A stretch of DNA of 64,000 nt from Candidatus Moranbacteria bacterium UBA1362 (GCA_002306085.1 DBRS01000004.1:8133-72132); one strand, 5' to 3'; shown: positions 4,923-63,909, counted from the stretch's first letter. Numbers and translations: made by a program. Notes: generated by a model from the sequence alone, not told the origin.

Positions 4923-4973
4923 TCGGTTGTTTGCGGCCTGATATCGTCCGTGACGCGTCGCTACGGGCGCGAG

Positions 4974-6466: not shown

Positions 6467-8536
6467 ATGAAAAAAAACAGCCTTAAATCTCTTTTTAATC
6501 CCGCTTCGATCGCGATTGTCGGCGCATCGGGCAAAAAAGGAAAGATCGGGAACATAATCATGGAGAACATCATGAAGCTCGGATATGGTGGAGATGTTTT
6601 TTTGGTCAATCCTTCCTGCAAATTCATAAAATTCAAACGTTGCCATCCTTCGCTTGGTTCGATCGGAAAAAAAGTTGATCTGGCGATAATTTGCGTGCCG
6701 GCAAAATTTGTTATCGACGTCGTAAAGAACGGAGCCAAAAATGCCAAAAATTTCGTGATTATATCGGCAGGTTTTTCGGAAACGGGAAAAGAGGGAGCAA
6801 AAAGAGAAAAAGAATTGCTTGCCATTGCCAAGAAAAACAACATCAACATCCTTGGTCCGAATTGCCTTGGTTTCATTGTTCCAAAAATTGGACTCAATGC
6901 GTCCTTTGCCGCGGGAATGCCCGATGCTGGGAACATAGCGTTTGTTTCTCAGTCGGGAGCGCTTGCTGTGGGGTTTATGGATAAGGCCAAAGAGGAGCAC
7001 CTTGGATTTTCAAGTGTAATTTCAATCGGAAACAAGATGCAACTCGGGGAAAGCGAGCTTTTGGAATATCTTGCCGAAGACAGAGAAACGAAAGTGATCG
7101 GCATGTATCTTGAAGGCATTAAAGACGGGAAAAATTTTTCCGAAATTGCCAAAAAAGTTTCCGCAAAAAAACCGATTGTAATTTTGAAAGCCGGCAAAAC
7201 CGCAAAAGCGCAGCAGGCAATTTCCTCGCATACGGGAGCGCTTGCGGGAAGCGATGAAATCACAAGCGCCGTTTTTGAAAAAATAGGCATCATGCGAGCC
7301 GATAATCTGGATGAGTTTTTTGATTTGCTTCAGCTTATTTCTTTTACCGACGCGCCGAAAAGCAAAAATGTCGCCGTAGTTACCAACGCGGGCGGCGCCG
7401 GAGTTCTTGCTACTGACTCTTTCAAGGGCAAAGAAATAGAGCTTGCGGAGTTTGTGAAAAATGAAAAGGAAAATCTTAGAAGAAATCTTCCTGCAGAAGC
7501 ATCGGTTGAAAATCCTGTAGATCTTCTCGGTGATGCCGAAGAAATCCGCTATCAAAAAACATTGGAAATTCTCAATAATGAAAAAATGGGATGCATATTG
7601 TGTCTTCTTACTCCGCAGCAGCAGACTCCAGTCGAGAAAATTTCAGAAATACTCAAATGTGAAAAGGCAAAAAACAAAGCGCTCATTGCAGCTGTTTTTG
7701 TGGGGGGAGAGAGGGTTGAAGATTCGATTGCCGACCTTAAGAAAAATAATGTTCCGTGCTTTTCCGATCCGCAAAGCGCTGTCGATGCAATTGATAAATA
7801 TTACAAGTGGAACGTTGCCGAAAAGAGTGCTCCTAAAAAACTTGCTGAAAAAAATTCTCTTGAGCGCAAAAAGCAATCGAATGAAATTATTTCAAAAGCT
7901 CTTGCGGATGGAAGAAAAGCTTTGTTTTTTCCGGAAGCTTCCGAAGTGATGGAAAAGTTCGGAGTAAAATGCGTTGAATCTTACGGAATAAAACCTGGTG
8001 ATGGCGTGCCTGAGATAAAAAATTATCCCGTGGTTCTCAAGGTGGACAGCGATAAGGTTTTGCACAAGTCCGATAAACAGGCGCTGATTTTGGACATAAA
8101 AAACAAGGAGGCTCTTGAATTGGAGCTGAAAAAGCTTAGAAAAAATTTTCCCGATGAGCATTTCGTGGTGCAGCCGATGATGGAAAGAAAAACGGAAATA
8201 ATTTTAGGCATCAAAAAGGACGCGATTTTCGGTCCGGTTGTTGTCTATGGATTGGGAGGAATATATACAGAAGTCTTTAAGATGGTGGATTTCTTGGTTC
8301 TGCCGGCAGATTTTGACGAGATTAAAAAGAATGTCATGAAAGGGAAACTGCGCTTTTTGTTTGAAGGCGCAAGAGGCCAGGCTTCGTACAATATCGAGGA
8401 GTTTGCAAGGATTCTCAAGGGAGTTGCTGATTTTGCCAGAAAAAACGACAAAGTTAGAGAGTTTGATGTGAATCCGCTTTTTATCTATAATGACGGAAGA
8501 GAGGCTCTGGCGGCGGACGTAAAAATAATTCTTTAA
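6467..8536 (+). CDS. Acetyl-CoA synthetase (ADP-forming) / acetate--CoA ligase, fused alpha-beta (CoA-binding + ATP-grasp)
   Basis: N-terminal CoA-binding Rossmann region (SIAIVGASGKKGKIG) and succinyl-CoA-synthetase-like domain. 689 aa, consistent with ADP-forming ACS (NDP-forming acyl-CoA synthetase family). Confidence 0.75.
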   Translation: MKKNSLKSLFNPASIAIVGASGKKGKIGNIIMENIMKLGYGGDVFLVNPSCKFIKFKRCHPSLGSIGKKVDLAIICVPAKFVIDVVKNGAKNAKNFVIISAGFSETGKEGAKREKELLAIAKKNNINILGPNCLGFIVPKIGLNASFAAGMPDAGNIAFVSQSGALAVGFMDKAKEEHLGFSSVISIGNKMQLGESELLEYLAEDRETKVIGMYLEGIKDGKNFSEIAKKVSAKKPIVILKAGKTAKAQQAISSHTGALAGSDEITSAVFEKIGIMRADNLDEFFDLLQLISFTDAPKSKNVAVVTNAGGAGVLATDSFKGKEIELAEFVKNEKENLRRNLPAEASVENPVDLLGDAEEIRYQKTLEILNNEKMGCILCLLTPQQQTPVEKISEILKCEKAKNKALIAAVFVGGERVEDSIADLKKNNVPCFSDPQSAVDAIDKYYKWNVAEKSAPKKLAEKNSLERKKQSNEIISKALADGRKALFFPEASEVMEKFGVKCVESYGIKPGDGVPEIKNYPVVLKVDSDKVLHKSDKQALILDIKNKEALELELKKLRKNFPDEHFVVQPMMERKTEIILGIKKDAIFGPVVVYGLGGIYTEVFKMVDFLVLPADFDEIKKNVMKGKLRFLFEGARGQASYNIEEFARILKGVADFARKNDKVREFDVNPLFIYNDGREALAADVKIIL

Positions 8537-8605
8537 GCGTCAATTGCCCTGATGAGCTTGCTGATTTTTTAATAAGCTAAAAGATGCCGCAAGGTTCGTA
8601 TTTTT

Positions 8606-9181
8606 ATGGACAAAAAAACAAAAATTTTGCTTGTTGACGACGATGTGAATTTGCGCCAAATGTACGCAGAGATATTTAAGAATTCAGGCTTTGAAGTTGT
8701 TGAGGCCGGTGACGGAGTTGAAGGACTCGACAAAGCTTCCAAAGAAGCTCCGGATGTAATTTTTACCGGAATAATTATGCCGCGCATGGATGGTTTTACC
8801 ATGATGGAGGCGCTCAAAAAAACCGTGATGACGGCAAGCATTCCGGTGGTAATTTCTTCGCACATGGGCCGAGAAGAAGATCAGCAAAAGGCCAACGCTC
8901 TGGGTGCGAAAGATTTCATAGTCCGTGACATAACGCGTCCGATTGAAACTGTGGAAAGAATCAGGGCTTTGTTTATCCAAGAAGGAGGAGAATATAAACT
9001 TGAGTTTAGTGCTGACAGAATGGATGCTCCGAAACTTGCAAAAGACTTGAGTTTTAATCCGACTTTCAACTGTCTGGATTGCGGAACAACCATTTCTCTT
9101 AATCTGAAATTGATAAATAAAAAGGATCGTATTTTTGAAGCAAAATTTGTTTGTCCTAAATGCGGATGGGAAGCTAAATGA
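8606..9181 (+). CDS. Atypical response-regulator receiver (phospho-acceptor Asp replaced by Gly) fused to a C-terminal zinc ribbon
   Basis: REC fold (KILLVDDD...; PDVIFTGIIMPRMDG aligns to DLVLLDxxMPxMDG with D->G at the acceptor). C-terminal CLDCG...CPKCG zinc ribbon. Confidence 0.7.
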   Translation: MDKKTKILLVDDDVNLRQMYAEIFKNSGFEVVEAGDGVEGLDKASKEAPDVIFTGIIMPRMDGFTMMEALKKTVMTASIPVVISSHMGREEDQQKANALGAKDFIVRDITRPIETVERIRALFIQEGGEYKLEFSADRMDAPKLAKDLSFNPTFNCLDCGTTISLNLKLINKKDRIFEAKFVCPKCGWEAK

Positions 9182-9302
9182 TGTATATAGTGTTTGGTAT
9201 ATAGTGTTTTGTATAAAATTTCACAGGGCATTGGAATTTGCTATTTTCCGTTTTTTATTTTTTGAACCGTATATACAAGATGCTAGGTACCGTTACAAAT
9301 TT

Positions 9303-11021
9303 ATGCCTCGATGGATTTTGTCTGAAAAGGAAGAAATTGCGAAAATGCCAAACTTGAAGCTGCATCCTTTGTTAGTGCAGCTTTTGTTTTCCCGTGGAAT
9401 TAAAACAAAAGAAGAAATCGAAAAATTCGTTTTCCCTGACTATGACAGAGACTTCCATGATCCTTTTTTGTTCTCTGACATGGAAAAAGTTGTCAAAAGA
9501 ATAGAAAAAGCCCGGGAAAAAAAAGAAAAAGTGGCCATTTTCGGTGATTATGATGCCGATGGAATCACCGCTTCCGTAATCATCAAGGAAACTTTGGATC
9601 TTTTAGGAATCGAATCTTTCACCTATATTCCCGACAAGATGAATGAAGGCTATGGCATGAATGTCGCGGCAGTGGAAAAATTTGAAAAAGAAAATGTTTC
9701 GCTGATAATCACGGTTGATTGCGGAATCACGAACATTGCCGAGGTGGAAAGAGCCAATTCTCTCGGGATAGATGTCATAATAACAGATCATCATCATATG
9801 CCGGAAAAAATTCCCGAGGCTTTTGCTGTGGTTGATCCGCACGATCCCAGATCAGAATATCCTTTCAGAGATCTTGCCGGAGTTGGAGTTGCGTTTAAAG
9901 TCGTGCAGGCCGTGTTTCAGAGGTTGCTGGAAGATAAGATTCAGCAAACCAAATGGATGCTTGATCTTGTGGCCATAGGCACAATTGCCGATTGCGTGCC
10001 GCTGGTCGGGGAAAACAGATTGTTTGCCAAATATGGTCTTATTGTTCTTTCGAAAACAAAACGCGTGGGCCTTAAAGAATTGTTTTCTGTGGGAAGAATC
10101 AATATTAACGAAAAGAATTTGCCCGACACTAGAAAAATTTCTTTCTATATTGCTCCCAGAATCAATGCTGCCGGAAGAATCAAGCATGCCAATCTTGCCT
10201 ATGATCTTATTTTTGAAAAAGACGTCGCGAAAGCGCGAACCTCGGCGCTTGAAATCGAGGCGCAAAATTCGGAAAGACAAAAAGTAACCGAGAAAGTTGT
10301 GGAAGAAGTTTCCATTCTCGCTCGCAGCGCTTTTAAAGACAAGAAATTTATTTTTGCCGCAAGCGAACATTTTCCCATAGGTGTTTTGGGGCTTGCTGCA
10401 GGAAAAATAGCTCAGCAATTTTTAAGGCCGGTTGCTATTTTTCGCAAAGATGAAGATGCAAGTACCGGCTCTTTTCGCAGCATCCCGCAGATAAATATCA
10501 TTGAAACGATCGGTAAATTTGGCGGCATGCTCATGAAATTCGGCGGACATTCTCAGGCTGCCGGTGCGACCATCAAAAATGAGAATTTTGTCAAATTCTG
10601 TGAAAAAATGAGCGAAGAAATTGAAAAGAAGCTCAAGGATTGTGATTTTTCCGAAGAAATTTTGGTTGACGCGAAAATTGATGCGAAAGATGTGGATTTT
10701 GCCCTGGTTGATGATATTGAGAAATTGAAACCTTTCGGCGAAGGCAACAGGGAGCCGGTTTTTATGATAAAAAATTTGACAGTGCGCGAAACAAGAATCG
10801 TAGGCAACGGAAACAAGCACATAAAGCTTTTCCTGGCTTGCGAGAATGAACCAAAAATATTTGAAGCGATCAGTTTTAACGGTTATGAAAAATTTTCGCA
10901 CATAAATGTCGGGGATAAAATTGATATTTTGTGCAATTTGCAAAAAGATGAATGGAATGGAAATATAAAGATACAATTTACTCTGATTGATGCGAGAGTT
11001 AGTCAGAGTAAGAATTTTTAA
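9303..11021 (+). CDS. recJ: Single-stranded-DNA-specific exonuclease RecJ (DHH/DHHA1)
   Basis: DHH motifs (AIFGDYDADGITAS, ITVDCG, ITDHHH) and a C-terminal OB-like region. The ORF-track start at 9135 overlaps the upstream gene, so ATG 9303 (or 9345) is preferred. Confidence 0.9.
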   Translation: MPRWILSEKEEIAKMPNLKLHPLLVQLLFSRGIKTKEEIEKFVFPDYDRDFHDPFLFSDMEKVVKRIEKAREKKEKVAIFGDYDADGITASVIIKETLDLLGIESFTYIPDKMNEGYGMNVAAVEKFEKENVSLIITVDCGITNIAEVERANSLGIDVIITDHHHMPEKIPEAFAVVDPHDPRSEYPFRDLAGVGVAFKVVQAVFQRLLEDKIQQTKWMLDLVAIGTIADCVPLVGENRLFAKYGLIVLSKTKRVGLKELFSVGRININEKNLPDTRKISFYIAPRINAAGRIKHANLAYDLIFEKDVAKARTSALEIEAQNSERQKVTEKVVEEVSILARSAFKDKKFIFAASEHFPIGVLGLAAGKIAQQFLRPVAIFRKDEDASTGSFRSIPQINIIETIGKFGGMLMKFGGHSQAAGATIKNENFVKFCEKMSEEIEKKLKDCDFSEEILVDAKIDAKDVDFALVDDIEKLKPFGEGNREPVFMIKNLTVRETRIVGNGNKHIKLFLACENEPKIFEAISFNGYEKFSHINVGDKIDILCNLQKDEWNGNIKIQFTLIDARVSQSKNF

Positions 11022-23943: not shown

Positions 23944-25326
23944 TTGCGGCGCCTCAACATGATGAATATTATGCAACTAAATAATGAAAAAGATTTTGTC
24001 AAAAATCTGAGCAATAGCGGCAAAGATAATTTGCCGTCCAAAACGGAAGAAACAAAGAAAAAGAAAAAAAATGAAAAAGGGCGGGGGTATTTTTTAAACA
24101 ACACTGTCATCACCGTCATCATTTTAATGTCTATTGCTATTTCTTCACTATTTGGTGCTGTTTTTGGCTTTATGTCTGGGGGAATGGCAAGCGCTTTTTC
24201 TGCGAAGTTTGGAGCCAAATTGAGTAAATACATCCCGATTATGGAATCGGAAAACGTTGATAAAAAAATCAACAAACAACAGATTATTATCGAAGATTCT
24301 GAAATTATAGAAGTGGTTGAAAAATCTTCTCCCGCAGTTGTCAGCATAAACATATCAAAAAACATTCCGAGTTACAGAAATTATTTCAATAATCCTGAGG
24401 ATTTGTTTTACCAATTCTTTGGATATGACGTGCAAACACCAGGCGACGGAGATGAGGAGCAAAAAGTTGGAGGCGGAAGCGGCTTTTTCATAAGTTCCGA
24501 CGGAATGATTTTGACAAACAGGCATGTTGTTGAAGATCAAAATGCCAATTATACTGTGGTCACGAACGACGGCAAGCAATATAAAGCCACAGTTCTGGCG
24601 CGCGATCCTGTAAGGGATGCTGCTGTCATAAAAATAGAAGGCACTGGTTTCCCGACGCTTCCTTTGGGTGATTCCGACTCGCTGAAGATAGGTCAAACAA
24701 CCATAGCCATAGGCAATTCATTGGGAGAATTTGCGAATTCCGTTAGTCGCGGGATCGTTTCAGGACTTAAGAGGAACCTGAGCGCCGGATCTGGTTTCGG
24801 AACTTCGGAACGTCTTACTGATATAATCCAAACGGATGCCGCAATTAATCCTGGAAATTCAGGAGGACCTCTTTTGGATATCGAGGGGAAAGTTATCGGA
24901 GTCAATGTGGCAATAGCCCAGGGCGCGCAAAATGTAGGCTTTGCTTTGCCGATCAATCAGGCAAAAAGGGTGATAGAACAGGCGAAAAGCGGGAAAAAAA
25001 TAGCCATTCCGTTTCTGGGAGTAAGATATGTTATCGTAAATTCGTCCGTGCAAAAAGAAGCGCAGCTGCCTTTTGACTACGGAGCGCTTGTTTTGAGGGG
25101 AAATAAATTAACAGAGCTGGCCGTTGTTCCGGGTTCTCCGGCCGATAAAGCTGGTATTGTTGAAAATGACATAATCCTGGAAGTCGAAGGTGAAAAACTT
25201 GATCAGGACAACCAGCTTGGCGATATTATCTCCAGATATAATGTGGGAGACGAGATAACCTTGAAGGTTTGGCACAAAGGAGAAATCAAGACTGTGAAAG
25301 TGACATTGCAGGAATTAAAGAATTGA
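23944..25326 (+). CDS. htrA: HtrA/DegP-family serine protease with PDZ domain
   Basis: Catalytic triad intact: TNRHVV (His), DAAVIKI (Asp), GNSGGPLLD (Ser). C-terminal PDZ. N-terminal TM. Confidence 0.9.
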   Translation: MRRLNMMNIMQLNNEKDFVKNLSNSGKDNLPSKTEETKKKKKNEKGRGYFLNNTVITVIILMSIAISSLFGAVFGFMSGGMASAFSAKFGAKLSKYIPIMESENVDKKINKQQIIIEDSEIIEVVEKSSPAVVSINISKNIPSYRNYFNNPEDLFYQFFGYDVQTPGDGDEEQKVGGGSGFFISSDGMILTNRHVVEDQNANYTVVTNDGKQYKATVLARDPVRDAAVIKIEGTGFPTLPLGDSDSLKIGQTTIAIGNSLGEFANSVSRGIVSGLKRNLSAGSGFGTSERLTDIIQTDAAINPGNSGGPLLDIEGKVIGVNVAIAQGAQNVGFALPINQAKRVIEQAKSGKKIAIPFLGVRYVIVNSSVQKEAQLPFDYGALVLRGNKLTELAVVPGSPADKAGIVENDIILEVEGEKLDQDNQLGDIISRYNVGDEITLKVWHKGEIKTVKVTLQELKN

Positions 25327-28905: not shown

Positions 28906-30075
28906 ATGAATGAGAACGCAAAAAATATAACTAGGCGTATTGCCAGAGGAATTTTTATTTTTTTTCTGATTTTTATAATTGGCGGACTTGGCGGTGTCTA
29001 TTTTGATCAAAAAGTGCTGCCCATGATCAGAACAAGCAAGCATCTTTCGCGCATAAATTTTTTGAAGCGAAGCGCGGAAAATGTCACAGTAATAAACAAG
29101 ACAGAGCAGGTTATCATCCAGGAGGACGATTCCGTGAACGAAATAGCCTCACAAGCTTCCAATACGGTCGTCAACATAATTTCAATTTCTTCGCAGAATT
29201 CTCCGGCAAGCGAGCAGGGAGTGCGTGAACAGAGCGGAACTGGCATGATAGCCACAAGCGACGGTTTGATTACCACTTACAGGACCGCGATAATTGAAGA
29301 CGGCGCTATATATAAGGTATTTTTATTCAATGGAAACAGCTATGATGCAAAACTTCTGGGAGTTGATGAGTTTTCCAATCTGGCATTTTTAAAGATTGAC
29401 ACGCCCAATTTGATGGCCATACCTTTTGGCGATTCTTCCGACGCGCGTCCCGGAAAAAAGCTTGTGGCAATTGGAAATTCATTTGGTGAATATCAGAACA
29501 GATATGCTTCAGGTCTTCTTAGCAGCATAGACAAAACTTTCAATTTGGCGGGAAAATCGGTTTCCTCTACTGAAAAATTGGAAAGTGTTTTTGAGGATGA
29601 TTTCAGCGACAGAAGAGAATATATCGGAGGTCCTGTCATAGGGCATAGCGGAGATCTGGTGGGAATAGTAGGAATGACCGTAATTGATGGCAAAGAGAAA
29701 TATTTTTTGATTCCGTCAAACGTTGTTAAAAATACTGTTGACTTTGTGCTGAAAAATGGTTTTGAAGCAAGACCCTTTTTCGGAGCTTATTATAAAACCA
29801 TTACGAAAGAGTTTTCCATGACGCACGGGCTTAATCGCGATCGCGGAGCGCTTATCTATTCTCCGTCAGGCAAACAGTCCCTAGCTTTCATTTCCGGATC
29901 GCCAGCCGAGATTGCCAGACTTAAAATAAACGACATTGTCACCATGGTTAATAATCAGGGGGTGAACCTCGACAATCCGCTTTCAAACCTCATTAATCAA
30001 TACAAGAAAGGAGACAAAATCGAACTCACGGTGGACAGAAACGGCGAAGAGATAAAAATTCCGGTGCAGCTGTAA
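28906..30075 (+). CDS. HtrA-like trypsin-fold plus PDZ protein with all three catalytic residues substituted (pseudoprotease)
   Basis: Aligns to the upstream HtrA: TTYRTA instead of TNRHVV (His->Arg), NLAFLKI instead of DAAVIKI (Asp->Asn), YIGGP instead of GNSGGP (Ser->Ile). PDZ retained. N-terminal TM. Confidence 0.7.
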   Translation: MNENAKNITRRIARGIFIFFLIFIIGGLGGVYFDQKVLPMIRTSKHLSRINFLKRSAENVTVINKTEQVIIQEDDSVNEIASQASNTVVNIISISSQNSPASEQGVREQSGTGMIATSDGLITTYRTAIIEDGAIYKVFLFNGNSYDAKLLGVDEFSNLAFLKIDTPNLMAIPFGDSSDARPGKKLVAIGNSFGEYQNRYASGLLSSIDKTFNLAGKSVSSTEKLESVFEDDFSDRREYIGGPVIGHSGDLVGIVGMTVIDGKEKYFLIPSNVVKNTVDFVLKNGFEARPFFGAYYKTITKEFSMTHGLNRDRGALIYSPSGKQSLAFISGSPAEIARLKINDIVTMVNNQGVNLDNPLSNLINQYKKGDKIELTVDRNGEEIKIPVQL

Positions 30076-32810: not shown

Positions 32811-33602
32811 ATGAAGAGGATCATATCGATTTTGGCAACAACGGTCTTTCTGGCGGCGCTGTTTTCTGGAAGCGCCATGGCAACGGGTGAGGAATTGGTC
32901 ATTTCCGAGGAACAGGCTCAGCCCGCGAAGGTTTGGGGAAGTTTTCCCGAAGCCTCAATTTGGGCGGGAGCCTGGATAAATCCGAAAATGGACACTCAGG
33001 GGTTGTGGGCTACTGCAAAGTATCTGGAGTGGTTCACAAAGTATGAAAAACCCGAAAACTTCGGCATCGGTGCTAAAGTTCGCGGAGATTATGGATGGAA
33101 ATCTATGGATGGTTCTGATCCTAATTGGAGCTACTATGCTCCCGGTCCGTCTGTGGGCTATTACCGCGGACTGACTCTTCGCGATTCAATTGAAGCGGAT
33201 TTTTCATTGCTATATCGCTTCGACAAAAATCGTGATGACGGATTCATGCCGGATCTTCATGCGGAGTATAATCGGATTTTGGGCTACAAAAATCGGCTGA
33301 CACTCCAAGTGGATGCGGTTTACTTTGAAGACGATAGCTGGGTTGGTCCTGGTGCATATTTGCATCACAGACTGAATAAAGACTGGAAAGTAATTCCTGG
33401 TGTCGGAGCGAGTTTGAGCTGGATTGATGGAGACTATATCTCCGGATTCCAGCCGTCGCTCAAGTTCAAGTATCGCAACAAGTGGACAATCGGCGCAACA
33501 GCCAACCTGTTCACAGGAAACGGTTCGTTTTTTGGGATTGTCGCGGCGTATGAATTTACGCCCGACATAAACACATGGTACGAAACAAAGAAAGCTCGTT
33601 GA
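32811..33602 (+). CDS. Secreted hypothetical protein (signal peptide), aromatic-rich, possibly beta-rich
   Basis: MKRIISILATTVFLAALFSGSAMA signal peptide. Mature part rich in W/Y/G with alternating hydrophobic pattern. Confidence 0.45.
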   Translation: MKRIISILATTVFLAALFSGSAMATGEELVISEEQAQPAKVWGSFPEASIWAGAWINPKMDTQGLWATAKYLEWFTKYEKPENFGIGAKVRGDYGWKSMDGSDPNWSYYAPGPSVGYYRGLTLRDSIEADFSLLYRFDKNRDDGFMPDLHAEYNRILGYKNRLTLQVDAVYFEDDSWVGPGAYLHHRLNKDWKVIPGVGASLSWIDGDYISGFQPSLKFKYRNKWTIGATANLFTGNGSFFGIVAAYEFTPDINTWYETKKAR

Positions 33603-33622
33603 GAGCGCAAAAGGAGGTAGAA

Positions 33623-34699
33623 ATGAAAGCACTACGTTTATTGGTCCTGTGTTTCGTCGCAATCGCGCTTTCAACAAGCGCGATGGCATACACCGAACGG
33701 CTCACGTCGCCCGCAAGGGTTGACGCTGATCTGGTGGACGTGAATGGAAAGAAGTATATTCGCTTCACCTTCACACACACAAGCGCGGCTGATACGTGGC
33801 ACGATACACTTGTTTCTTTCTGTCCGGATCCGCTACGGGAAGGTTGTGATAACAACATTCCATTCAGCATAACAAAGATGGAATGCACAACCACCATGAT
33901 CTGGGACATTCCGCTCGAGGTTATCGCCGGAGGTCAGAGTGCTGTGAACTGGGCCTGTGATGAGGACTGGTTCAACACAAAATGGCTATTCCTTCCGGAT
34001 TGCAGAAACCTTACGGTAGGTCGGAATCTCATTTACTATAAGAGTCTTCCTGATCCGATGATTCCGAAGTCCGGCGGCATGCATCTTTTGTATGTCGGTC
34101 CGGGAGCGCCGTTTGTTCCCGCGTCTGATGATCCGAGATGGTTCAGGTGCGGAGGATATTGCGCTCCTTCTGCACCACCTATTGTGATTGCGCCTGTTGT
34201 TCCGGCGCCGGTACCTCCCGTGGTGAAGCCTGCAGAGCCTTGCAAAAAGCCGGCTTCGCCGAAGTCGATCTGCGACGAACCCTGCATACAGCAGATCAGT
34301 GAAGACACTTCGGCAACACGTGAATCAGTTGGTGTCATTGATAAGACTGAACCGGCTGATGAGCAAAAGTTGCAGCAGAAGGCCCGCAAGACTCTTGCAA
34401 TTTCCAAACGTGTGGAAACAAACACCAGTACTATTATTGACCAAAACAACCAGACTAATGACAAACTGGGGACGCCCAAGGGGGAAGGTCAAACGCTTTT
34501 CTCCGAGCTGGATGACGTTAAAGGGGGTGTAACCATTATACAGAATCAAGTGGATACAAAATTCAACGAGATAAAGGCTCAGGTATCCACAAGTTTCTGG
34601 GACAAATGGTGGTTGCTTATACTAGCCATAGCAGCTGCCATTATCATATTAGCCACGTGGGGGCTTACATGCTACTCTGGTGTACGCATAAAGGATTAG
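33623..34699 (+). CDS. Surface protein: signal peptide, Cys-containing globular domain, Pro-rich linker, C-terminal TM anchor
   Basis: MKALRLLVLCFVAIALSTSAMA; PIVIAPVVPAPVPPVVKPAEP linker; C-terminal WWLLILAIAAAIIILATWGL. RBS aaggagg before ATG 33623. Confidence 0.55.
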   Translation: MKALRLLVLCFVAIALSTSAMAYTERLTSPARVDADLVDVNGKKYIRFTFTHTSAADTWHDTLVSFCPDPLREGCDNNIPFSITKMECTTTMIWDIPLEVIAGGQSAVNWACDEDWFNTKWLFLPDCRNLTVGRNLIYYKSLPDPMIPKSGGMHLLYVGPGAPFVPASDDPRWFRCGGYCAPSAPPIVIAPVVPAPVPPVVKPAEPCKKPASPKSICDEPCIQQISEDTSATRESVGVIDKTEPADEQKLQQKARKTLAISKRVETNTSTIIDQNNQTNDKLGTPKGEGQTLFSELDDVKGGVTIIQNQVDTKFNEIKAQVSTSFWDKWWLLILAIAAAIIILATWGLTCYSGVRIKD

Positions 34700-37650: not shown

Positions 37651-38610
37651 TTGAAAAATATGAAAAGCTTGAAAAATCGCTTATTCAGGGGAAAATTGGA
37701 GGTTATAGGAAGCCTTGTGCTTATAGCCCTCTTTGTTATTCCTTTGCTTTCTTTTGCGGGCGGCAGAAAAGACATCTATGTCAGCGCCAACGCAAAAGGT
37801 ATTGAAGATGGCTCTGCAAAACATCCTTATAGAACAATCTCTGAAGCTTTAGTGCATGCGGATAAGAAAACTGATGTACATGTGCTTAAAGGTTCCTATG
37901 AAGACAATATTGAAATTCCCAAGGGTGTAAGGATTTTCGGCAGCGGCTCTGACGATGTGACAATACGTTCAAGAAGCAGCAAAAAAGTTGTTGTCAGCAT
38001 GAAGGACGATACTGTCATAGACGGCGTTACCATTAAAAAGGGCAAGAACGGAATCTGGATTAAGGGCGACGCTGAAGTCTCAATTGTTGATTGTGTTATC
38101 CGCGATAATGAATCCGACGGGATAAAAATAGCCAAAGGTAGCACCAAGCACGACAAAGTAAGTATTACCAACAGCAGGATTGAAGATAACGGCAAAAGCG
38201 GAATTTATTCAGGCAAGAGAAGAATTGTTTTGATAAACAATGAAATCATTGGCAATGACAAAGACGGGATTGATCTCGCTGCTGGAGCAAGCGCCTGGAT
38301 GGAAAAGAATGAAATAAAGAAAAATGACAAGAGCGGAATCAAGCTCACTTTGGATAGAAGCGACATATGGATGAAAAATAATTCCATAAGAGACAATGAG
38401 AGAGAAGGGATTGAAATTAACGCTTATGGCGGGACAGGAAGGATTGATGTCAACAAAGCAAAAATAATTGGCAACGAAAATTTTGGTATCGCGAAAATAT
38501 CAAGAGCGGCATTTTCTCACAGCATTTGGAACGGATTAACCATTCATGACACCAAAATCATCGATGGAAATAAAAAAGGATCCATTTCCGCAGTAATATC
38601 TATATTTTAG
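37651..38610 (+). CDS. Secreted right-handed parallel beta-helix repeat protein (pectin-lyase fold)
   Basis: Signal peptide. Repeated about 22-aa units (NNEIIGNDKDGIDL, KNEIKKNDKSGIKL, NNSIRDNEREGIEI) typical of PbH1 beta-helix repeats. Confidence 0.7.
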   Translation: MKNMKSLKNRLFRGKLEVIGSLVLIALFVIPLLSFAGGRKDIYVSANAKGIEDGSAKHPYRTISEALVHADKKTDVHVLKGSYEDNIEIPKGVRIFGSGSDDVTIRSRSSKKVVVSMKDDTVIDGVTIKKGKNGIWIKGDAEVSIVDCVIRDNESDGIKIAKGSTKHDKVSITNSRIEDNGKSGIYSGKRRIVLINNEIIGNDKDGIDLAAGASAWMEKNEIKKNDKSGIKLTLDRSDIWMKNNSIRDNEREGIEINAYGGTGRIDVNKAKIIGNENFGIAKISRAAFSHSIWNGLTIHDTKIIDGNKKGSISAVISIF

Positions 38611-54449: not shown

Positions 54450-54521
54450 TCTTTAGACGATAAGGTTTTTTTATTATATAATATAATCACATTTCAATAA
54501 ATATTAATAATCATTCTTCTG

Positions 54522-55412
54522 ATGTTACGTAATTTTACAGTATCGACATCGGCAAGTATTTGTTGTTTTTTGTTTCTGTTTTTCGCAATTATTTTTCCGA
54601 CAGATGCAGCCATCTACTTCGAGGATAATTTCGACGGATATTCTGACTCTCCGACAAATCATGGCTGGCATGTTCCGTCAACAAGAGTGGAAATCTATGA
54701 AGGTCCTGAAACACGCTTCGGAAGATGTATCCGCCATACCATAAATTCCAACGGAACGCATTATAGTTTCTCGCACGATCCCTATCCTGCTGGAATCGTG
54801 GATGACATATACGTAGGATTTTACTACAAATCAACTCATGTGAAAGGAACCGGCGGGGGACATAAGTTTTTAAAGTTGTTCGGATGGATAGACAGCAATG
54901 ATTATGCCAATACTACGTTCGGACAAACATATCAAACAGGTGCGTTTTGGCAAGTTAGTTATGGAGACGGAATGGGGATGATAGGTGATTCAACATGTGT
55001 GGCGCGATACAACGGCCTAATTTCAGATTCTCCTTGTTCTGGATCAATCGTCTCACATTCAGGTCCATTTGACTTAGATGATAGTCAATGGCATTGGGTT
55101 GTGTGTCATGCCAAGCATAACTCAAACGACAACTACGATGGCGCTTTGGATGTTTGGATAGACGGAGAATTGAAATTGTCCGCCATAGGCATTAAAAATA
55201 GAAATGATCTAAACACAATAGACTGGACGTCCATGAATTTTGTGGAGTACGCCGACTGTTTTGGAGCAAGTTGTAACGGCATAAACTATAATGCTTCTCC
55301 TTATTATGTATACATTGATGATGTAATAGTTTCGGACGGATATATTGCTCCACCTGGCAGCTCTTCAGACACAACAGCGCCAGCAAATCCAACAGGGCTT
55401 GCAGTAAGTTGA
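54522..55412 (+). CDS. Secreted protein with concanavalin-A-like/LamG-like domain, ending in conserved PTGLAVS tag
   Basis: Signal peptide. WHWVVCHAKHN...GALDVWIDGELKL is a ConA-like lectin/glucanase pattern. C-terminus DTTAPANPTGLAVS-stop. Confidence 0.6.
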   Translation: MLRNFTVSTSASICCFLFLFFAIIFPTDAAIYFEDNFDGYSDSPTNHGWHVPSTRVEIYEGPETRFGRCIRHTINSNGTHYSFSHDPYPAGIVDDIYVGFYYKSTHVKGTGGGHKFLKLFGWIDSNDYANTTFGQTYQTGAFWQVSYGDGMGMIGDSTCVARYNGLISDSPCSGSIVSHSGPFDLDDSQWHWVVCHAKHNSNDNYDGALDVWIDGELKLSAIGIKNRNDLNTIDWTSMNFVEYADCFGASCNGINYNASPYYVYIDDVIVSDGYIAPPGSSSDTTAPANPTGLAVS

Positions 55413-55504
55413 AAATTCAGCAAACTTGTAAAATCTCCCATAAACTATTTTTTAAATAGCGAGTTACTTAATTAGTTTAGTAACGCGTTAAGTAACAAAC
55501 TCTT

Positions 55505-56530
55505 ATGAAAAAACAAATATGTAAAATATCTTTTCTTGCTATATTTTTAGGCATTTTCTGCTTTACAAATGAAGTTTTTGCACATAACAAACTTATATTT
55601 ATTCACCATTCCACGGGAGGATATTGGTTTGCCAATGCCAGCTCCACCGGCGGCGGCCTTGCGAAAGCATTGGACGACGTGGGTATATACGCTCGGGATA
55701 TCAATTATCAGCAATACAATAACGACTTCAATCCTCCGCAAAATCCAACCATTTCCAACAACACTGATATCGGGCATTGGTGGCTTTGGTTTGCCGATAC
55801 CACAATGCAAGCGAACGGCATTACCAAGCGCGACAACGTTATGGACGGAGAGAAGGGAGTATACAAGACAACAAACAAAACCAACGCGCACGGAACATAT
55901 ACAACCAACATGACAGATCCCGGAGGAGAAAACAATATCATAATGATCAAAAGCTGCTATCCTTCTGCCAATATCTATTCCGATAACAGCACAACTTTTG
56001 GACAAATGCGCGGACAAGGAGCAAGCTATACCGTCGGAGGTCAGAACGTAAACACTGTCAGCAATGTTAAAGCTCTCTATAACTCGCTTTTGGAATATTT
56101 CAAGACAAGAACGGACAAAATGTTTATTATCTCGTTTACTCCGCCTCTTTTAGCCTCAAGCACAACTGCGGAGAGAGCGGCAAACACTCGTTTAGTTGCC
56201 AATTGGCTTGTGAATGAATGGCTGCAAAGCGCCAATTGGGTAAATAAAAATGTCTATATTTTTGACCAGTTCAACGTACTTACCCATGAGAACAACAGAC
56301 ACACATATGAAAACGGCCAAGTTATTCACTACACTGATCCGGCAAGCGGCAATTATCTCGTATATCCAAGAAGTGCAAGCGACAACCATCCTAGCGGAGC
56401 AGGGCACCAGAAAGCTACCGCCAATTTTGTTCCACTTCTTCAACATTGGATAGCAACATACGAAGCTTTTGCAGCAGGTACAACTGACACAACTCCACCC
56501 GCAAACCCAACCGGACTTTCCGTAAACTAG
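55505..56530 (+). CDS. Secreted putative SGNH-like hydrolase ending in conserved PTGLSVN tag
   Basis: Signal peptide ISFLAIFLGIFCFTNEVFA. DNHPSGAGHQKATANF resembles SGNH block V (DxxHPxxxGxxxxA). C-terminus DTTPPANPTGLSVN-stop. Confidence 0.5.
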   Translation: MKKQICKISFLAIFLGIFCFTNEVFAHNKLIFIHHSTGGYWFANASSTGGGLAKALDDVGIYARDINYQQYNNDFNPPQNPTISNNTDIGHWWLWFADTTMQANGITKRDNVMDGEKGVYKTTNKTNAHGTYTTNMTDPGGENNIIMIKSCYPSANIYSDNSTTFGQMRGQGASYTVGGQNVNTVSNVKALYNSLLEYFKTRTDKMFIISFTPPLLASSTTAERAANTRLVANWLVNEWLQSANWVNKNVYIFDQFNVLTHENNRHTYENGQVIHYTDPASGNYLVYPRSASDNHPSGAGHQKATANFVPLLQHWIATYEAFAAGTTDTTPPANPTGLSVN

Positions 56531-56554
56531 AAGCTCATAAAATTTTCAAAGAAA

Positions 56555-58198
56555 ATGCAAAAGAAAGCATATGGAATAATTAAAGCGATTACAATATTTA
56601 CAATTATATTGTTGAGCATTTTTTGCTTTGCAAATAATTCTTTTGCCTATGGCAATGTGAATGAACTTGAGATAATTGCGCCAAAAGAAGCAGGGACCGG
56701 AAACCCCGCTTTGAATGAGAACGCAAGATATTTCAGGGCATATCCCGGAATTGAATATAAAATAAAAGCAGCGGTTATAGGCGGAAAATATCCTTATATC
56801 TATTCATTAAGCAATGCTCCGGAAAGTATGACGATAGATAGGAAATCGGGAACCATCATATGGGCAAACCCGCAAGCTTCTGCGCAAAACATAGGATTGA
56901 CTGTTACTGATGCAAACGGAAATTCTGTGCAATCATCATGGTCGATAAACGTGACTTCGGACAGCTTCATTTTTGTCGATGCTGGTGCGCAAGACGGGGG
57001 AGACGGAACAATTTCAAATCCTTTCAATTCAATTGAGGACTTTCTTGCCTTGGATAGCTCATATGTTTCCGATATTGTATATTTCCGGGATGGGATATAT
57101 GATCTGCCGGTTTGGGGAGGCGCAACTTCATCCGGAGCATCAAGCTGCAGTCTTGACAGAGATGGAGGAGATGCCCATATCTGGCTGGGATATCCCAATG
57201 AAAATGTCACGATTGACTTCGGAGGAAATAAATTCATTGCGGCAAATTTAACAAATCCTCTCGCACCATACTACTTTGCGCATATGCGCTGGTATAACGC
57301 CCAGGAATATGGAATAAGAGCCGATAGTCACTTAGACTACGTTGTTTTATACGACATGGATTGCGACACATTGCACACAACTCACACTATAAATGAAAAC
57401 ATGGGATGGTACTTTACTCCTTATGTCGGAGCCGGTCATTATTTGATGTTTCTTGACAGCAAATTTCATGATTACACTGACACAACGGGCATTGGCAGCT
57501 TCTATGAGCAAGACAAGATGCTTATCGAAGGAAATCAATTTTACAATCAACTTGTCGGTGAATTGAATGGCTCATTTTCCGCCATATCTCCCAAGACAAG
57601 TGTCACTCGCAGCACAATAAGAGGAAATAGTATTGTTGTTTCCTATAGAAATTGTTTCGGTTCAGGCTGGAATTCCCAATTTGGGGAATACAGTCTGACA
57701 GGCACTCGTTCGCATGGCAATGAAGTGTGTTTTAATTTATTCTTGAAAGATTCAGAATCTGATACGGCAAGTATGATAAATCCAGGCGCGGAATCGGGAT
57801 CAACCTACTATTATCGCAATACTTGGCGTGGTCGCATAAATATGAGAAATATAAATTCAACCATGTATCCGGGAACCACAACGTGCGGCAATCCATTACA
57901 GGTAGTTCCGGATGCAGAGTGCGGAGATAACGGCCCGTTTGTTTTTGAAAACAACGTAATGCAAAATCAGGATGCCGGAGTTTATTATGATTACACAAGC
58001 GGGCCGAACCCGGAAAATTATGTTCCGATGATGGATAATTTGACAGGCTCCGAAGGCCTTATTGATTCCGATGGTCTTCTCATCAACCGTACCTACGTCG
58101 GTACCTACGGCCATGAGATTGCCGAAAGCGAATATTGGAATGATGGAGAAGCAGACGCAACACCTCCCAATACTCCAACAGGACTTTCCGTAAGTTAA
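56555..58198 (+). CDS. Secreted hypothetical protein (547 aa) ending in conserved PTGLSVS tag
   Basis: Signal peptide ITIFTIILLSIFCFANNSFA, similar to the preceding gene. C-terminus DATPPNTPTGLSVS-stop. Confidence 0.55.
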   Translation: MQKKAYGIIKAITIFTIILLSIFCFANNSFAYGNVNELEIIAPKEAGTGNPALNENARYFRAYPGIEYKIKAAVIGGKYPYIYSLSNAPESMTIDRKSGTIIWANPQASAQNIGLTVTDANGNSVQSSWSINVTSDSFIFVDAGAQDGGDGTISNPFNSIEDFLALDSSYVSDIVYFRDGIYDLPVWGGATSSGASSCSLDRDGGDAHIWLGYPNENVTIDFGGNKFIAANLTNPLAPYYFAHMRWYNAQEYGIRADSHLDYVVLYDMDCDTLHTTHTINENMGWYFTPYVGAGHYLMFLDSKFHDYTDTTGIGSFYEQDKMLIEGNQFYNQLVGELNGSFSAISPKTSVTRSTIRGNSIVVSYRNCFGSGWNSQFGEYSLTGTRSHGNEVCFNLFLKDSESDTASMINPGAESGSTYYYRNTWRGRINMRNINSTMYPGTTTCGNPLQVVPDAECGDNGPFVFENNVMQNQDAGVYYDYTSGPNPENYVPMMDNLTGSEGLIDSDGLLINRTYVGTYGHEIAESEYWNDGEADATPPNTPTGLSVS

Positions 58199-58290: not shown

Positions 58291-58314
58291 AAAACCGGCG
58301 AACGCCGGTTTTGA
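58291..58314. terminator. Bidirectional terminator
   Basis: aaaaccggcg-aa-cgccggtttt. Confidence 0.8.
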
Positions 58315-62607: not shown

Positions 62608-63909
62608 TTAATTATAAATTATCATTTGATCAATAACGGTCCCGCTTTTCGTTCCCATGGCTCCTACTAAAGCCCTTGAGGTATCAAGATAAATATTTGG
62701 ACCAAAATACGGATCATGCACCACATACTTCCCTGTTGAAGATTCCTTATGATGTATTACGACATAATGACCTCCACTTCCTTTTGTTTTTTTAATATAA
62801 ACAATCACAGGATTATCTTTTTTAATTTGCGAATCAATAACTTTCCAGCTAATATTCCCATGTCTCACCCCATAAGAAGCAAGTGAAACCTTATCGCCAT
62901 AAGACTTTGAAGGCCACGCAATGAGACCTTCTTCGGTATATATGGGTTTTTTGACAAGCTGCAAAGGAGTTATCTTGTCCTTATGCGCCGTAAAGACCAT
63001 AGCCACTGATGAAATGGCGCATCCGTAATTTTTCATCTTGAGGCCGGAAATACCAATTTTGACATCTCCCCACTTAGGATCGCGCTGGGAATAATACCAA
63101 TCGGTTGAAGCGAAAAGCGATGAAGGCGGTTCAGGAAAATCTTTCAATGAAAGACCGCTGTCAGCAAAAAATCGTTCTATATCAAGCAGCTGTTGTTTCT
63201 GCTCTTCTATGTTAGCCAGGAGTTTTCTATATCTTTCTTCTTCGCTTTTGGTCTGCACCAAAAGAACCTCCCGTTGTTTTTTCAGCGATTCCAAATTTGA
63301 GTTCTTGTCTTTAAGTTCCTGTGTTTTTTTGGCAATTTCACTCTTTTTCTTATCAATGGCATCTCTTTCTTCTTTGAGCTGGTTTTTTATTTCCGTAATT
63401 GAGTTAACAATATCTCTGATTTTGTCACCAGTCTGAGCAATCCTGTTTTTCGTGAGAATAAAAGAGGCTATGTTTCCTTTGGACAAATATGCCATTATCA
63501 AGCCTCCCTGATTTACTTCATAATAACCTCGGACAATTTCCGCGAGCAGCTTTTTTTGCGACTCGATCAATGTTTCCTTTTCTTTTATCTGACTTTCGAG
63601 TCTTATTATCTGGCTGTTGTATTCTTCAATCTGCCTGGTGCTTAATTCGATTTGCGTCTGAACCTGATTCAGGTTCGCTTCAGTAATGTATAACTGATTA
63701 CTTATTGATTCGCCCTGCTTTTCCTTTATTTCAACAATCTGCCGGTATATTTCGGCTTTTTTCTTAAGCTCTTCAAGTTTTTTTTGAGTGTCCTCCGAAA
63801 TCTCATCTTCACTGTCAGCTTTGGCGCAATAAAAAGATCCGAGGCAAATAGCCAAGACAAATGATATCACAAATAATGTATGGATTTTTTTTATTTTTAT
63901 ATGCATCAC
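62608..63909 (-). CDS. Secreted coiled-coil protein with C-terminal papain-like (C39-like/CHAP-like) cysteine peptidase domain, putative cell-wall hydrolase
   Basis: Signal peptide. Long heptad-rich region (EnvC-like). C-terminal NYGCAISSVAMV (Cys) and GGHYVVIHH (His). Confidence 0.45.
   Translation of the reverse strand: MMHIKIKKIHTLFVISFVLAICLGSFYCAKADSEDEISEDTQKKLEELKKKAEIYRQIVEIKEKQGESISNQLYITEANLNQVQTQIELSTRQIEEYNSQIIRLESQIKEKETLIESQKKLLAEIVRGYYEVNQGGLIMAYLSKGNIASFILTKNRIAQTGDKIRDIVNSITEIKNQLKEERDAIDKKKSEIAKKTQELKDKNSNLESLKKQREVLLVQTKSEEERYRKLLANIEEQKQQLLDIERFFADSGLSLKDFPEPPSSLFASTDWYYSQRDPKWGDVKIGISGLKMKNYGCAISSVAMVFTAHKDKITPLQLVKKPIYTEEGLIAWPSKSYGDKVSLASYGVRHGNISWKVIDSQIKKDNPVIVYIKKTKGSGGHYVVIHHKESSTGKYVVHDPYFGPNIYLDTSRALVGAMGTKSGTVIDQMIIYN

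Follow-up and report, generated by a model that had tools for sequence, protein, structure and literature searches.

In cohesin-dockerin systems, the dockerin is a folded, duplicated Ca-binding loop-helix module of roughly 60-70 residues, which attaches to the outside of an intact cohesin. SpyTag/SpyCatcher is a man-made split beta-sandwich in which SpyTag forms a covalent isopeptide bond, and in FN3 fragment complementation, an engineered split, a short peptide and the remainder of the domain reportedly reassemble with high affinity. Patescibacteria account for much of bacterial diversity and live in attachment to other cells; to our knowledge, few of the ways in which they retain surface proteins have been described. 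The Pam pili of CPR bacteria, which have no outer membrane, are built by donor-strand exchange of truncated Ig-like folds and include membrane-anchored components (10.64898/2026.03.03.709456). FN3 fragment complementation is cited in the references of PMC11666773 as Dutta et al. 2005 (Protein Sci 14:2838). A literature search found no described signal or split Fn3 for the bacteria considered here.

We analysed three adjacent genes of a Candidatus Moranbacteria bacterium for secreted proteins that end in one short motif, together with the genomes in which this motif recurs. We propose, with confidence a little above even, that the motif is the missing piece of an Fn3 domain split in nature, and that it serves as a donor strand by which enzymes dock on anchored acceptors; we infer both the binding and its purpose.

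Three secreted proteins with a common C-terminal tail

The window (the whole stretch of DNA that was analysed, 64 kb long) contains three consecutive genes on the + strand, each encoding a signal peptide and a core unrelated to the other two (Table 1). As the first-pass annotation had described, and as the ORFs, tails and stop codons bear out, all three proteins terminate in the same motif. Its consensus is D-[TA]-T-[AP]-P-x-x-P-T-G-L-[AS]-V-[SN], 14 residues followed directly by a stop codon that differs from gene to gene, and a six-frame scan of the 64 kb finds exactly three copies. Any two of the 42-nt tail-coding stretches differ at 11 of the 42 positions and by 2-5 synonymous codon changes, so that it is the protein sequence that is conserved, as had been claimed.

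Table 1. Features of the three-gene unit, in window coordinates
Feature	Coordinates	Strand	Details
Promoter match, sigma-70-like	54454..54482	+	TAGACG-17-TATAAT, ahead of gene 1; 10/12 matches; regional count of promoter-like sites equals shuffle expectation
Gene 1	54522-55412	+	296 aa, stop TGA (ORF call)
Tail of gene 1	55368..55409	+	DTTAPANPTGLAVS, then TGA
Gene 2	55505-56530	+	341 aa, stop TAG (ORF call)
Tail of gene 2	56486..56527	+	DTTPPANPTGLSVN, then TAG
Gene 3	56555-58198	+	547 aa, stop TAA (ORF call)
Tail of gene 3	58154..58195	+	DATPPNTPTGLSVS, then TAA
GC-rich hairpin	58291..58312		AAAACCGGCGTTCGCCGGTTTT, between gene 3 and a convergent nuclease gene

Each of the three N-termini combines a basic beginning with a hydrophobic core and a cleavage site resembling A-x-A. 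The near-identical leader that had been pointed out in genes 2 and 3 (..IFCF[TA]N[EN][VS]FA) is present and is ordinary paralogue similarity. The next start codons follow the stops of genes 1 and 2 after 93 nt and 25 nt, leaving therefore no room for an Fn3 domain. The hairpin downstream of gene 3 is likely a bidirectional terminator closing the unit, while the promoter match upstream of gene 1 is weak evidence for a promoter. Exact copies of the window proteins occur on 41-58 public contigs (NCBI, JGI, ENA, Logan), and orthologues from other assemblies, at 73-83% identity, stop at the same terminal residue. A DNA element following the stop codon, AAGTTTATMAAGTT, conspicuous in loci L001, L019 and L026, was discarded as an explanation, with 4 matches in the window against 2.3 expected and no enrichment. 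Two HtrA-type PDZ proteases are also encoded within the 64 kb.

All three genes are predicted to encode secreted enzymes acting on sugar polymers. Gene 1, ConA/LamG-like in the first-pass annotation, consists of a signal peptide, a ConA-like jelly-roll core and the tail; the core is a weak match to the polysaccharide-lyase family PF14099 (E 8.4e-06, below the Pfam cut-off). Among 161 representatives of the gene 1 family, dozens carry the same tail at the end, and one (P0210) has an extra C-terminal domain with the tail placed after it. Gene 2, previously called SGNH-hydrolase-like, belongs to an uncharacterised enzyme family with invariant Ser36, Asn143 and His295, which are compatible with an SGNH-like enzyme and no proof of one. 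SGNH hydrolases have conserved blocks with catalytic Ser, Gly, Asn and His; in gene 2 the last block reads D-x-H where the usual spacing is D-x-x-H, and no family match was found in Pfam, NCBIfam or PDB (the last searched by sequence and by profile). Among gene 2 homologues, only the close orthologues P0001-P0005 have the tail.

Gene 3, earlier left unclassified, contains a He_PIG Ig domain (aa 76-134), a PL9-like right-handed beta-helix and the tail. Its AlphaFold2 model has a mean pLDDT of 87.5 and matches the rhamnogalacturonan lyase 5olr best in the PDB. In this model residues 530-547, which include the tail, have a pLDDT of 46-58 and no secondary structure, and the tail is predicted to be flexible. 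Docking of the tail in cis, whether on the gene 3 Ig domain or on its helix cap, was rejected, since AlphaFold2 leaves the tail disordered. Homologues of gene 3 retain the tail down to 28% identity, and across this range (Acidobacteriota, Geomonas) the chain ends 3-7 residues from G-L.

Strand A tails and A-less Fn3 neighbours across genomes

Within the Pfam fn3 profile, the match of the tail is confined to strand A, roughly the first dozen positions, which agrees with the resemblance to a first Fn3 strand that had been noticed. In P0184, a homologue from the gene 1 family, the motif runs on into a complete Fn3. [quoted passage not shown] The logo of 96 tailed proteins reads D T T P P A A P T G L x V x-COOH; five of these residues, D(-14), P(-10), P(-7), G(-5) and L(-4), each occur in 94 or more of the 96, T(-6) varies between T, S and Q, and the last residue varies (N, Q, S, E, L or M) and is mostly polar. 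The conserved hydrophobic residues at -4 and -2 reproduce the inward-facing pattern of Fn3 strand A. The motif is terminal in 96 copies and internal in 5.

A degenerate DNA search of 185,579 genomes for proteins ending in the motif returned 61 further stop-terminated tails, against about 0.3 expected by chance (our own information-content estimate), mostly in Patescibacteria and otherwise in Nitrospirota, Smithella and Burkholderiaceae. In other phyla, too, distant homologues end at the same point as the window proteins. The modular arrangement described in the first-pass annotation (a leader, a variable enzyme and a constant C-terminal tag) holds, and it extends far beyond the window. Tail genes often lie in arrays of 2-8, and the tail is present in 133 of 515 distinct ORFs of the fetched loci. 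Proteins that share it include lyase-like, esterase-like, beta-helix, GH39 and other polysaccharide-active enzymes. Two near-identical strains, L001 and L002 (99.76% identity over 16.9 kb), have different cassettes upstream, with the breakpoint in intergenic DNA just past a tail stop codon. The cassette shuffling suggested earlier is partly right, as an evolutionary side-effect. A phage origin was rejected, with 2 matches among 2.9 million viral contigs. An AAA/DUF4143 ATPase gene recurrent inside the arrays looked like a partner; it is unrelated and probably a mobile insert.

Tail arrays are adjoined by a recurrent protein of ~125 residues, which we call the acceptor, with an N-terminal TM helix, an Fn3 domain beginning at strand B and a short basic C-terminal helix. 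The AlphaFold2 model of one of these (P0370; 102 sequences, pLDDT 87.9) has the TM helix, six strands and the C-terminal helix, with no strand A, and its best PDB matches by Foldseek are all Fn3 domains. Taken alone, acceptors match Pfam fn3 only from profile position 13-15. Model, Foldseek matches and profile start together describe an Ig-like fold minus one strand, the hallmark of the acceptor in donor-strand complementation. The donor is expected to be a free strand with the pattern of the missing one, and the tail has this in its strand A logo and its lack of structure in cis; an artificial concatenate of tail and acceptor matches the fn3 profile from position 1, with a higher score than the acceptor alone.

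Larger acceptors carry the A-less Fn3 directly after the signal-peptide cleavage site and a peptidoglycan-binding (PG_binding_1) or SH3_3 domain at the end. Of 26 acceptor-type Fn3 domains, 25 come first among the folded elements, preceded by a signal peptide, TM helix or lipobox, and often just 2-3 residues stand ahead of strand B. The acceptors are anchors by virtue of a TM helix, lipobox, PG_binding_1 or SH3_3. In some of the small ones, a juxtamembrane segment (e.g. RDLKVSGK) could provide a short strand A from within the same chain. One internal Fn3 of the acceptor subtype, in L046, also has no canonical strand A, suggesting that the subtype might be stable with six strands. The L050 protein encoded at 4527-6905 combines acceptor and tail in one chain. 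Dockerin and cohesin matches were seen beside one acceptor (L060).

Genetic linkage, a further mark of donor-strand complementation, was found at five of eight acceptor loci picked regardless of tails (six for their long contigs, two via the L001-fragment scan): 2-8 tail genes lie immediately upstream on the same strand. At the other three no canonical tail gene is nearby. Acceptors also flank tail arrays in L001, L021, L025, L029 and L046. The 64 kb window itself contains no acceptor gene. On the contig of the near-identical L001 strain (99.8% identity), an acceptor known from its last 57 residues lies beside a second array, ~13-23 kb beyond the window end, and this contig suggests a presumptive acceptor for the organism studied here. 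A metagenome scan for that acceptor returned only relatives at 59-63% identity, and ERR6188828_3908, the contig joining the window to the second array, ends short of the acceptor position. The Acidobacteriota EPS loci L006 and L007, which encode tailed homologues, and the related L008 locus showed no acceptor within 10 kb.

Proposed split-domain docking and alternative readings

A docking peptide for a common partner was one of three hypotheses in the first-pass annotation and is the one that we favour, a candidate acceptor having been found; the binding is what we infer. In the proposed mechanism, strands B to G of an Fn3 domain are encoded apart from strand A, as the first folded element of surface-anchored acceptors. 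After Sec export, the free tail of an enzyme would slot in beside strand B of the acceptor, with Leu(-4) and Val(-2) filling its open hydrophobic core. The Fn3 sandwich would be completed non-covalently by donor-strand complementation, tethering the enzyme to the membrane or wall. From Fn3 topology, the N- and C-termini of an A-less Fn3 would lie at the same pole, beside the membrane; the donor strand would start at the distal pole, with the enzyme pointing outward, and end at the membrane pole, which would account for the abrupt C-terminus. L050-type proteins could polymerise head to tail.

It is unlikely, in our judgement, that the tail is instead a sorting or processing signal for another machine (for example a peptidase, a transpeptidase, or a secretion or retention factor) and that the Fn3 neighbour is merely a co-regulated surface protein. 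Classic sorting signals are likewise short terminal motifs common to unrelated enzymes, in L001 and L068 an S41 (Ctp-type) PDZ protease is encoded at a distance of four genes beyond the array, and there are the two HtrA-type PDZ proteases of the window. However, the S41 gene is no general neighbour, being absent from L057, L059, L061, L062 and L072, and the annotated neighbourhoods showed no gene for a sortase, rhomboid or S8 peptidase, a minority of the fetched loci having been screened for peptidase families. The tail matches no NCBIfam sorting-signal model and has no TM segment or basic tail, in keeping with the earlier view that it is not LPXTG/PEP-CTERM-like. A sortase substrate, in which a hydrophobic segment and a basic tail come after the LPXTG motif, was rejected, as the chain ends three residues past G-L and T(-6) is replaceable by S or Q. 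So were PEP-CTERM/exosortase and related TM-containing CTERM signals, which combine a signature motif with a TM helix and an Arg-rich end. Ligands of PDZ domains and C-terminal processing proteases end in a hydrophobic residue, and positions 0 and -2 determine their specificity; this possibility too was rejected, given the variable, mostly polar last residue and the restriction of the S41 neighbour to two loci. The variation at T(-6) and at the last residue, with hydrophobic residues at -4 and -2, fits Fn3 strand A rather than a PDZ or sortase motif.

Slightly less probable again is that the tail acts without an Fn3 acceptor, as an edge strand for enzyme self-association or by binding another surface component, for instance an S-layer, pili or a polysaccharide substrate. 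The exposed, flexible tail in the gene 3 model is consistent with this, as are the tailed homologues in diderm EPS biosynthesis loci with no acceptor nearby, and the L050 protein hints at head-to-tail assemblies. Such action leaves unexplained the residue-for-residue likeness of the tail to Fn3 strand A, and also the recurrent neighbouring Fn3 that is missing exactly this strand.

We consider it improbable that the tail is a functionless vestige, left when an ancestral C-terminal Fn3 was cut by recombination or cassette insertion at the linker/strand-A DNA and kept by gene conversion between paralogues. Fused forms such as P0184, the plasticity of the arrays with the L001/L002 breakpoint, and the leader common to genes 2 and 3 point in this direction. 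Yet a neutral stub should decay and end variably, whereas from phylum to phylum the end point and five positions hardly vary, and the three tails differ at synonymous sites and in their stop codons. Gene conversion is impossible between Acidobacteriota, Nitrospirota and Patescibacteria, and in P0210 the tail stands behind the extra domain, so that it follows whichever domain is last.

That the stops are read through, or that the genes are 3'-truncated assembly artefacts of ordinary Fn3 proteins, has nothing in its favour except that the tail looks like the beginning of an Fn3, and is already refuted by the sequence, its probability being close to nil: TGA, TAG and TAA are all used, the next genes and the hairpin follow closely, identical proteins recur on the independent contigs and orthologues share their end, and other genomes have 61 independent stop-terminated cases.

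Returning to split-Fn3 docking, we give about an even chance to its wider form, a previously undescribed and widespread surface-display system made of a 14-residue strand-A tag on swappable cassettes and six-stranded Fn3 receptors on anchored proteins. If true, Patescibacteria and some Nitrospirota, Desulfobacterota and Proteobacteria would gain a minimal, cellulosome-like means of arming their surface with polysaccharide-active enzymes. Tag and receptor would allow the surface enzyme repertoire to be listed from sequence for thousands of uncultured genomes, and would point out enzymes acting on host or own glycans. Natural split-domain docking would join the known anchoring mechanisms (sortase, exosortase, T9SS, cohesin-dockerin), and the pair would offer protein engineering a tiny natural tag and catcher. 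The split-Fn3 reading is directly testable with peptides and the roughly 90-residue ectodomain.

Comparison with known systems

The C-terminal sorting signals (LPXTG/sortase, PEP-CTERM/exosortase and the T9SS CTD) resemble the tail in being a short conserved C-terminal element across otherwise unrelated secreted proteins of one genome. The tail, in contrast, has no TM helix, basic tail or conserved cleavage motif, and no cognate sorting enzyme was seen in the annotated neighbourhoods; the T9SS CTD, which belongs to diderm bacteria, is an entire domain. In fused Fn3 enzymes such as P0184, the same linker and strand A (DTTPPxxPTG..V) follow the catalytic core, but strands B-G continue in the same chain, whereas the window chains stop after strand A. 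Unlike the engineered split tags (FN3 fragments, SpyTag/SpyCatcher), the split proposed here would be natural and non-covalent, at the A-B loop.

The likeness to pili (chaperone-usher Pap/Fim and CPR Pam) lies in an Ig-like sandwich minus one strand that is completed by the strand of another polypeptide. In our case the sandwich is an Fn3 that lacks strand A, its N-terminal edge strand, and the proposed donors are C-terminal tails from a range of unrelated enzymes rather than pilin subunits. Neither a chaperone nor an usher homologue was noticed in passing among the annotated loci. The product would be an anchored enzyme and no filament, with the L050 protein as a possible exception.

With cohesin-dockerin, the proposed system shares diverse secreted carbohydrate-active enzymes, a common C-terminal module, a receptor on an anchored scaffold and exchangeable enzymes. 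The three window proteins have no Pfam Dockerin_1 or Cohesin match, and the tag, at 14 residues, would join the receptor's own fold rather than bind the surface of a complete one. Since one tag is common to many different polysaccharide-active enzymes, it would act like a minimal cohesin-dockerin display platform with exchangeable cassettes.

Three secreted proteins and their common C-terminus

Three neighbouring secreted-protein genes (genes 1, 2 and 3) close with the same 14-residue C-terminus, here called the tail, directly ahead of three different stop codons, which bears out the claim of the first-pass annotation that tandem secreted proteins share an extreme C-terminal motif. The gene 1 stop lies 93 nt from the start of gene 2, and the gene 2 stop 25 nt from the start of gene 3; given these starts and the hairpin after gene 3, no translation is possible beyond the tail. 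The annotation had also named 3'-truncation during assembly as a possible source of the motif. Such an artefact, like recoding, is excluded by the three different stops, the two short gaps, the hairpin and the recording of the proteins (HPX94151-HPX94153) residue for residue on 41-58 public contigs. Scanning of all frames of the 64 kb revealed no tail copies beyond the three genes. Within the tail-coding DNA, 11 of 42 positions differ in every pair, including two to five synonymous codon changes.

The cores of the three proteins are mutually unrelated. That of gene 1 weakly matches the PF14099 polysaccharide-lyase (jelly-roll) family, and gene 3 comprises a He_PIG Ig domain and a right-handed beta-helix, with an AlphaFold2 model (pLDDT 87.5) whose nearest structure is a PL9 rhamnogalacturonan lyase. 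Searches of Pfam, NCBIfam and the PDB returned no relative of the gene 2 family, in which Ser36, Asn143 and His295 are invariant. This large family (alignment A4) has no Pfam model, consists of secreted proteins of ~300-600 aa in bacteria and methanogenic archaea, shows the conserved motifs IHHSTG, KSCFPNS and GDxHPS, and in many members carries a C-terminal TM anchor instead of the tail. The window derives from a Candidatus Moranbacteria MAG; the surrounding 40 kb is an ordinary Patescibacteria chromosome, with a cell-envelope glycan cluster (GT4 genes, MurJ, Wzy_C, DUF4012 and dTDP-rhamnose genes).

Tail-bearing genes and other features of the window
Feature	Position	Strand	Description
HtrA-like proteases (two)	23944-25326; 28906-30075	+	trypsin + PDZ; 5 kb apart, around ClpB and a DUF5656 gene
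Secreted protein	32811-33602	+	no Pfam match
Secreted protein	33575-34699	+	no Pfam match; Pro-rich stalk and C-terminal TM anchor, therefore a possible surface protein
Beta_helix/NosD-like protein	37651-38610	+	319 aa; N-terminal anchor, no tail; between GT4 genes, in the glycan biosynthesis cluster (Wzy_C, GT4, DUF4012)
Gene 1	54522-55412	+	296 aa; Sec signal peptide; tail DTTAPANPTGLAVS then TGA
Gene 2	55505-56530	+	341 aa; Sec signal peptide; tail DTTPPANPTGLSVN then TAG
Gene 3	56555-58198	+	547 aa; Sec signal peptide; tail DATPPNTPTGLSVS then TAA
GC-rich hairpin	58291-58312		3' of gene 3
Secreted protein	62608-63909	-	433 aa; long coiled coil, C39-like peptidase domain

Conservation and spread of the tail

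Gene 2 orthologues from other assemblies (73-83% identity) terminate in ..P[ST]GL[SA]V[SILN], and more distant homologues have no tail. Nearly all gene 3 homologues, down to 28% identity, terminate in P-x-[GNEA]-[LIV]-x-[VI] plus one to five residues; they include proteins of the diderm Vicinamibacterales and Geomonas, encoded within Wzy-type exopolysaccharide loci. Among the 50%-identity cluster representatives of the gene 1 family, dozens have the C-terminus ..DTTPPAAPTGLxVx, and the distance of P-x-G-L from the terminus is exactly seven residues. In some homologues of genes 1 and 3, a Pro-rich linker leads instead to a different short strand-like tail (..GTVRVR, ..GVSASGVTFR, ..FRGMGQ, ..GSVQFN; P0125, P0220, P0197, P0209, P0233, P0238, P0142 and L063 3213-7880), which could serve another acceptor as donor strand.

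A degenerate DNA pattern for D-T-T-[AP]-P-x-x-P-[ST]-G-L-x-V-x-stop, run against 185,579 species with one genome each, gave 63 matches in 47 stretches, with ~0.3 expected by chance as estimated from the information content of the pattern. True stop codons are present in 61 of the 63, which mostly close long ORFs with signal peptides; the remaining two are TGG, in archaeal proteins running on past the motif. The majority fall in Patescibacteria (Moraniibacteriota, Wolfe-, Brenner- and Gottesmanbacteria, Paceibacterota and Saccharibacteria), and others in Nitrospirota, Smithella, one Burkholderiaceae MAG and MAGs labelled Bdellovibrionales. Of the 515 distinct ORFs in the fetched loci, 133 carry the tail, and they usually stand in tandem, with 2-8 genes per array. 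The motif closes the protein in 96 cases and lies internally in five. Its logo reads D(-14) T T P P A A P(-7) T G L x V x, and D(-14), P(-10), P(-7), G(-5) and L(-4) are each missing from at most two of the 96 proteins. The tail is thus a conserved C-terminus under selection, recognised by no curated family model in Pfam or NCBIfam.

A second array occurs in the window organism. The Logan contig ERR6188828_3908 (L002), 99.9% identical to the window over the compared 2.9 kb, carries genes 1-3 at 31-34 kb and a second, larger array at 0.3-10.5 kb (327-10524) of six tail-bearing enzyme cassettes, one of which is called as two genes; the contig edge truncates a seventh. This array is on the opposite strand, ~13-23 kb past the window's 3' end, with GT4, LytR_cpsA_psr, GT2 and S41 PDZ protease genes downstream. 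A strain contig, L001, is 99.76% identical over 16.9 kb and encodes, directly upstream of its array, a 123-aa fn3 protein known from its last 57 residues only. The strains differ by whole cassettes upstream of an intergenic breakpoint just after a tail stop codon.

The L002 array may be compared with L001 322-13459 and with L003. The L001 array includes a 709-aa SLT + LysM (lytic transglycosylase) protein (6372-8501) with a degenerate tail-like end, ..KKLPIPEGIVIRV. Just 3' of tail stops in several Moranbacteria-like loci stand AAGTTTATMAAG-type words, in places in tandem (AAGTTCATCAAGTTCATCAAGATCATCAAG); they follow stops 4609, 9934, 11590 and 13459 in L001, and also occur in L019, L025 and L026. 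The motif, which shows no enrichment in the window (4 matches vs 2.3 expected), might mark a recombination junction or act as an intergenic signal particular to the lineage. AAA_14/DUF4143 ATPase genes repeatedly interrupt tail arrays of different lineages (L026 2837-4204 and 5636-6832, L011, L012, L027, L038 and L040).

An anchored Fn3 domain lacking strand A

The likeness of the motif to the first strand of a fibronectin-III domain, proposed in the first-pass annotation, is confirmed by the gene 1 homologue P0184, in which an equal motif (DTTPPxxPTG..V) leads directly into a complete Pfam fn3 domain. For gene 3, an AlphaFold2 model computed from an alignment of 34 sequences with a conserved tail is confidently folded except for residues 530-547, which have pLDDT 46-58 and no secondary structure, indicating that, as modelled, the tail is not used in cis.

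Clustering of the non-tail ORFs of tail loci yielded a recurrent protein of 120-130 aa that directly adjoins tail arrays, our candidate acceptor. A short linker joins its N-terminal TM helix to an Fn3 domain that runs from strand B onward and opens with G-x-A-x-L-S-W-N-x-N-T-E-x-D-L-A-G-Y-K-I-Y-Y-G-T...; two invariant cysteines come next, together with a short C-terminal helix that is basic and amphipathic. Database searching brought up 124 relatives, almost all between 92 and 166 aa long. The AlphaFold2 model (102 sequences, pLDDT 87.9) has six strands (B, C, C', E, F, G) between the TM helix and the terminal helix, strand A being absent, and its best PDB matches are all Fn3 domains. Five acceptors match the Pfam fn3 profile (84 positions) only from position 13-15; when tail and ectodomain are joined in silico, the match reaches position 1 and the score rises from 31.6 to 34.9 bits.

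The fetched loci contain 26 copies of this A-less Fn3 subtype. Of these, 25 follow a signal peptide, TM helix or lipobox with no other folded element in between, and the predicted cleavage site (slash) is often only 2-3 residues from strand B (..AFA/AT-ANLSWN, ..ALA/GS-ATVSWN). Larger carriers terminate in wall-binding domains, PG_binding_1 (L072, L021, L046) or SH3_3 (L016). The window contains no acceptor signature.

For a reverse synteny test, eight acceptor loci were chosen regardless of tails, six for long contigs and two via the L001 fragment. Tail genes lie immediately upstream on the same strand in five of them (L057, four; L059, two; L061, four; L062, five; L072, eight), and no upstream tail genes were found in L060, L063 and L068. 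By our own estimate, assuming ~1-2% tail-bearing genes per genome, the probability of five such loci among eight by chance is of the order of 1e-7. Tail arrays with flanking acceptors are also present in L001, L021, L025, L046 and the Burkholderiaceae locus L029, where the acceptor is a lipoprotein.

Two other arrangements were observed. A 792-aa protein of a Nitrospirae MAG (JACQFA010000095; L050 4527-6905) carries an A-less Fn3 directly behind the signal peptide, then a GH39 domain, and a donor tail at the C-terminus; under the docking model it could self-close or polymerise head to tail. Adjoining some small acceptors are proteins (L060 10593-13228, L057 10389-11015, L061 10716-11255) with an A-less Fn3 right after the signal peptide and dockerin-like C-termini, with weak cohesin matches alongside, a hint that some Patescibacteria combine split-Fn3 with cohesin-dockerin modules.

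A proposed split Fn3 domain and its alternatives

The simplest account, which we consider somewhat likelier to be right than wrong, is a naturally split Fn3 in which the enzyme tail is donated in trans to the anchored six-stranded acceptor. It is suggested by a tail whose end is exact and conserved, which equals strand A and is free in cis, and by a receptor that lacks just strand A, lies at a mature N-terminus, is anchored to membrane or wall, and is gene-linked to tails. Among the earlier hypotheses, a docking peptide for a common partner is favoured, and the gene-linked A-less Fn3 protein is a candidate partner whose binding of the tail we infer. The tail would insert as strand A; from Fn3 topology, both termini of the A-less acceptor should lie at one pole, beside the membrane, and the donated strand should begin at the distal pole and end at the membrane pole. 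Ending there would explain the abrupt C-terminus, and starting distally would make the Pro-rich linker and enzyme face outward.

Alternatively, the tail might pair with strands independently of an acceptor, in keeping with the diderm exopolysaccharide-locus homologues that have no acceptor nearby. Reading by another machine, such as a peptidase or PDZ protease, would suit the terminal position, but the last residue is variable, with hydrophobics at -2 and -4, tail genes have no consistent enzyme neighbour, and no model matches the tail. As for a neutral vestige of Fn3 loss, cassettes do turn over between strains, but conservation of the tail end point across phyla does not fit such an origin. 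The cassette shuffling proposed earlier is partly right, as an evolutionary side-effect.

Full-text literature searches turned up no account of the tail, nor of a docking pair built on a split Fn3. Complementation between engineered Fn3 fragments has reportedly been described. Chaperone-usher pili are an established case of truncated Ig-like folds completed by a donor strand, and CPR Pam pili have just been reported as another. The principle of donor-strand complementation is known; a universal 14-residue tag by which enzyme cassettes dock to an Fn3 receptor would be a new form of it.
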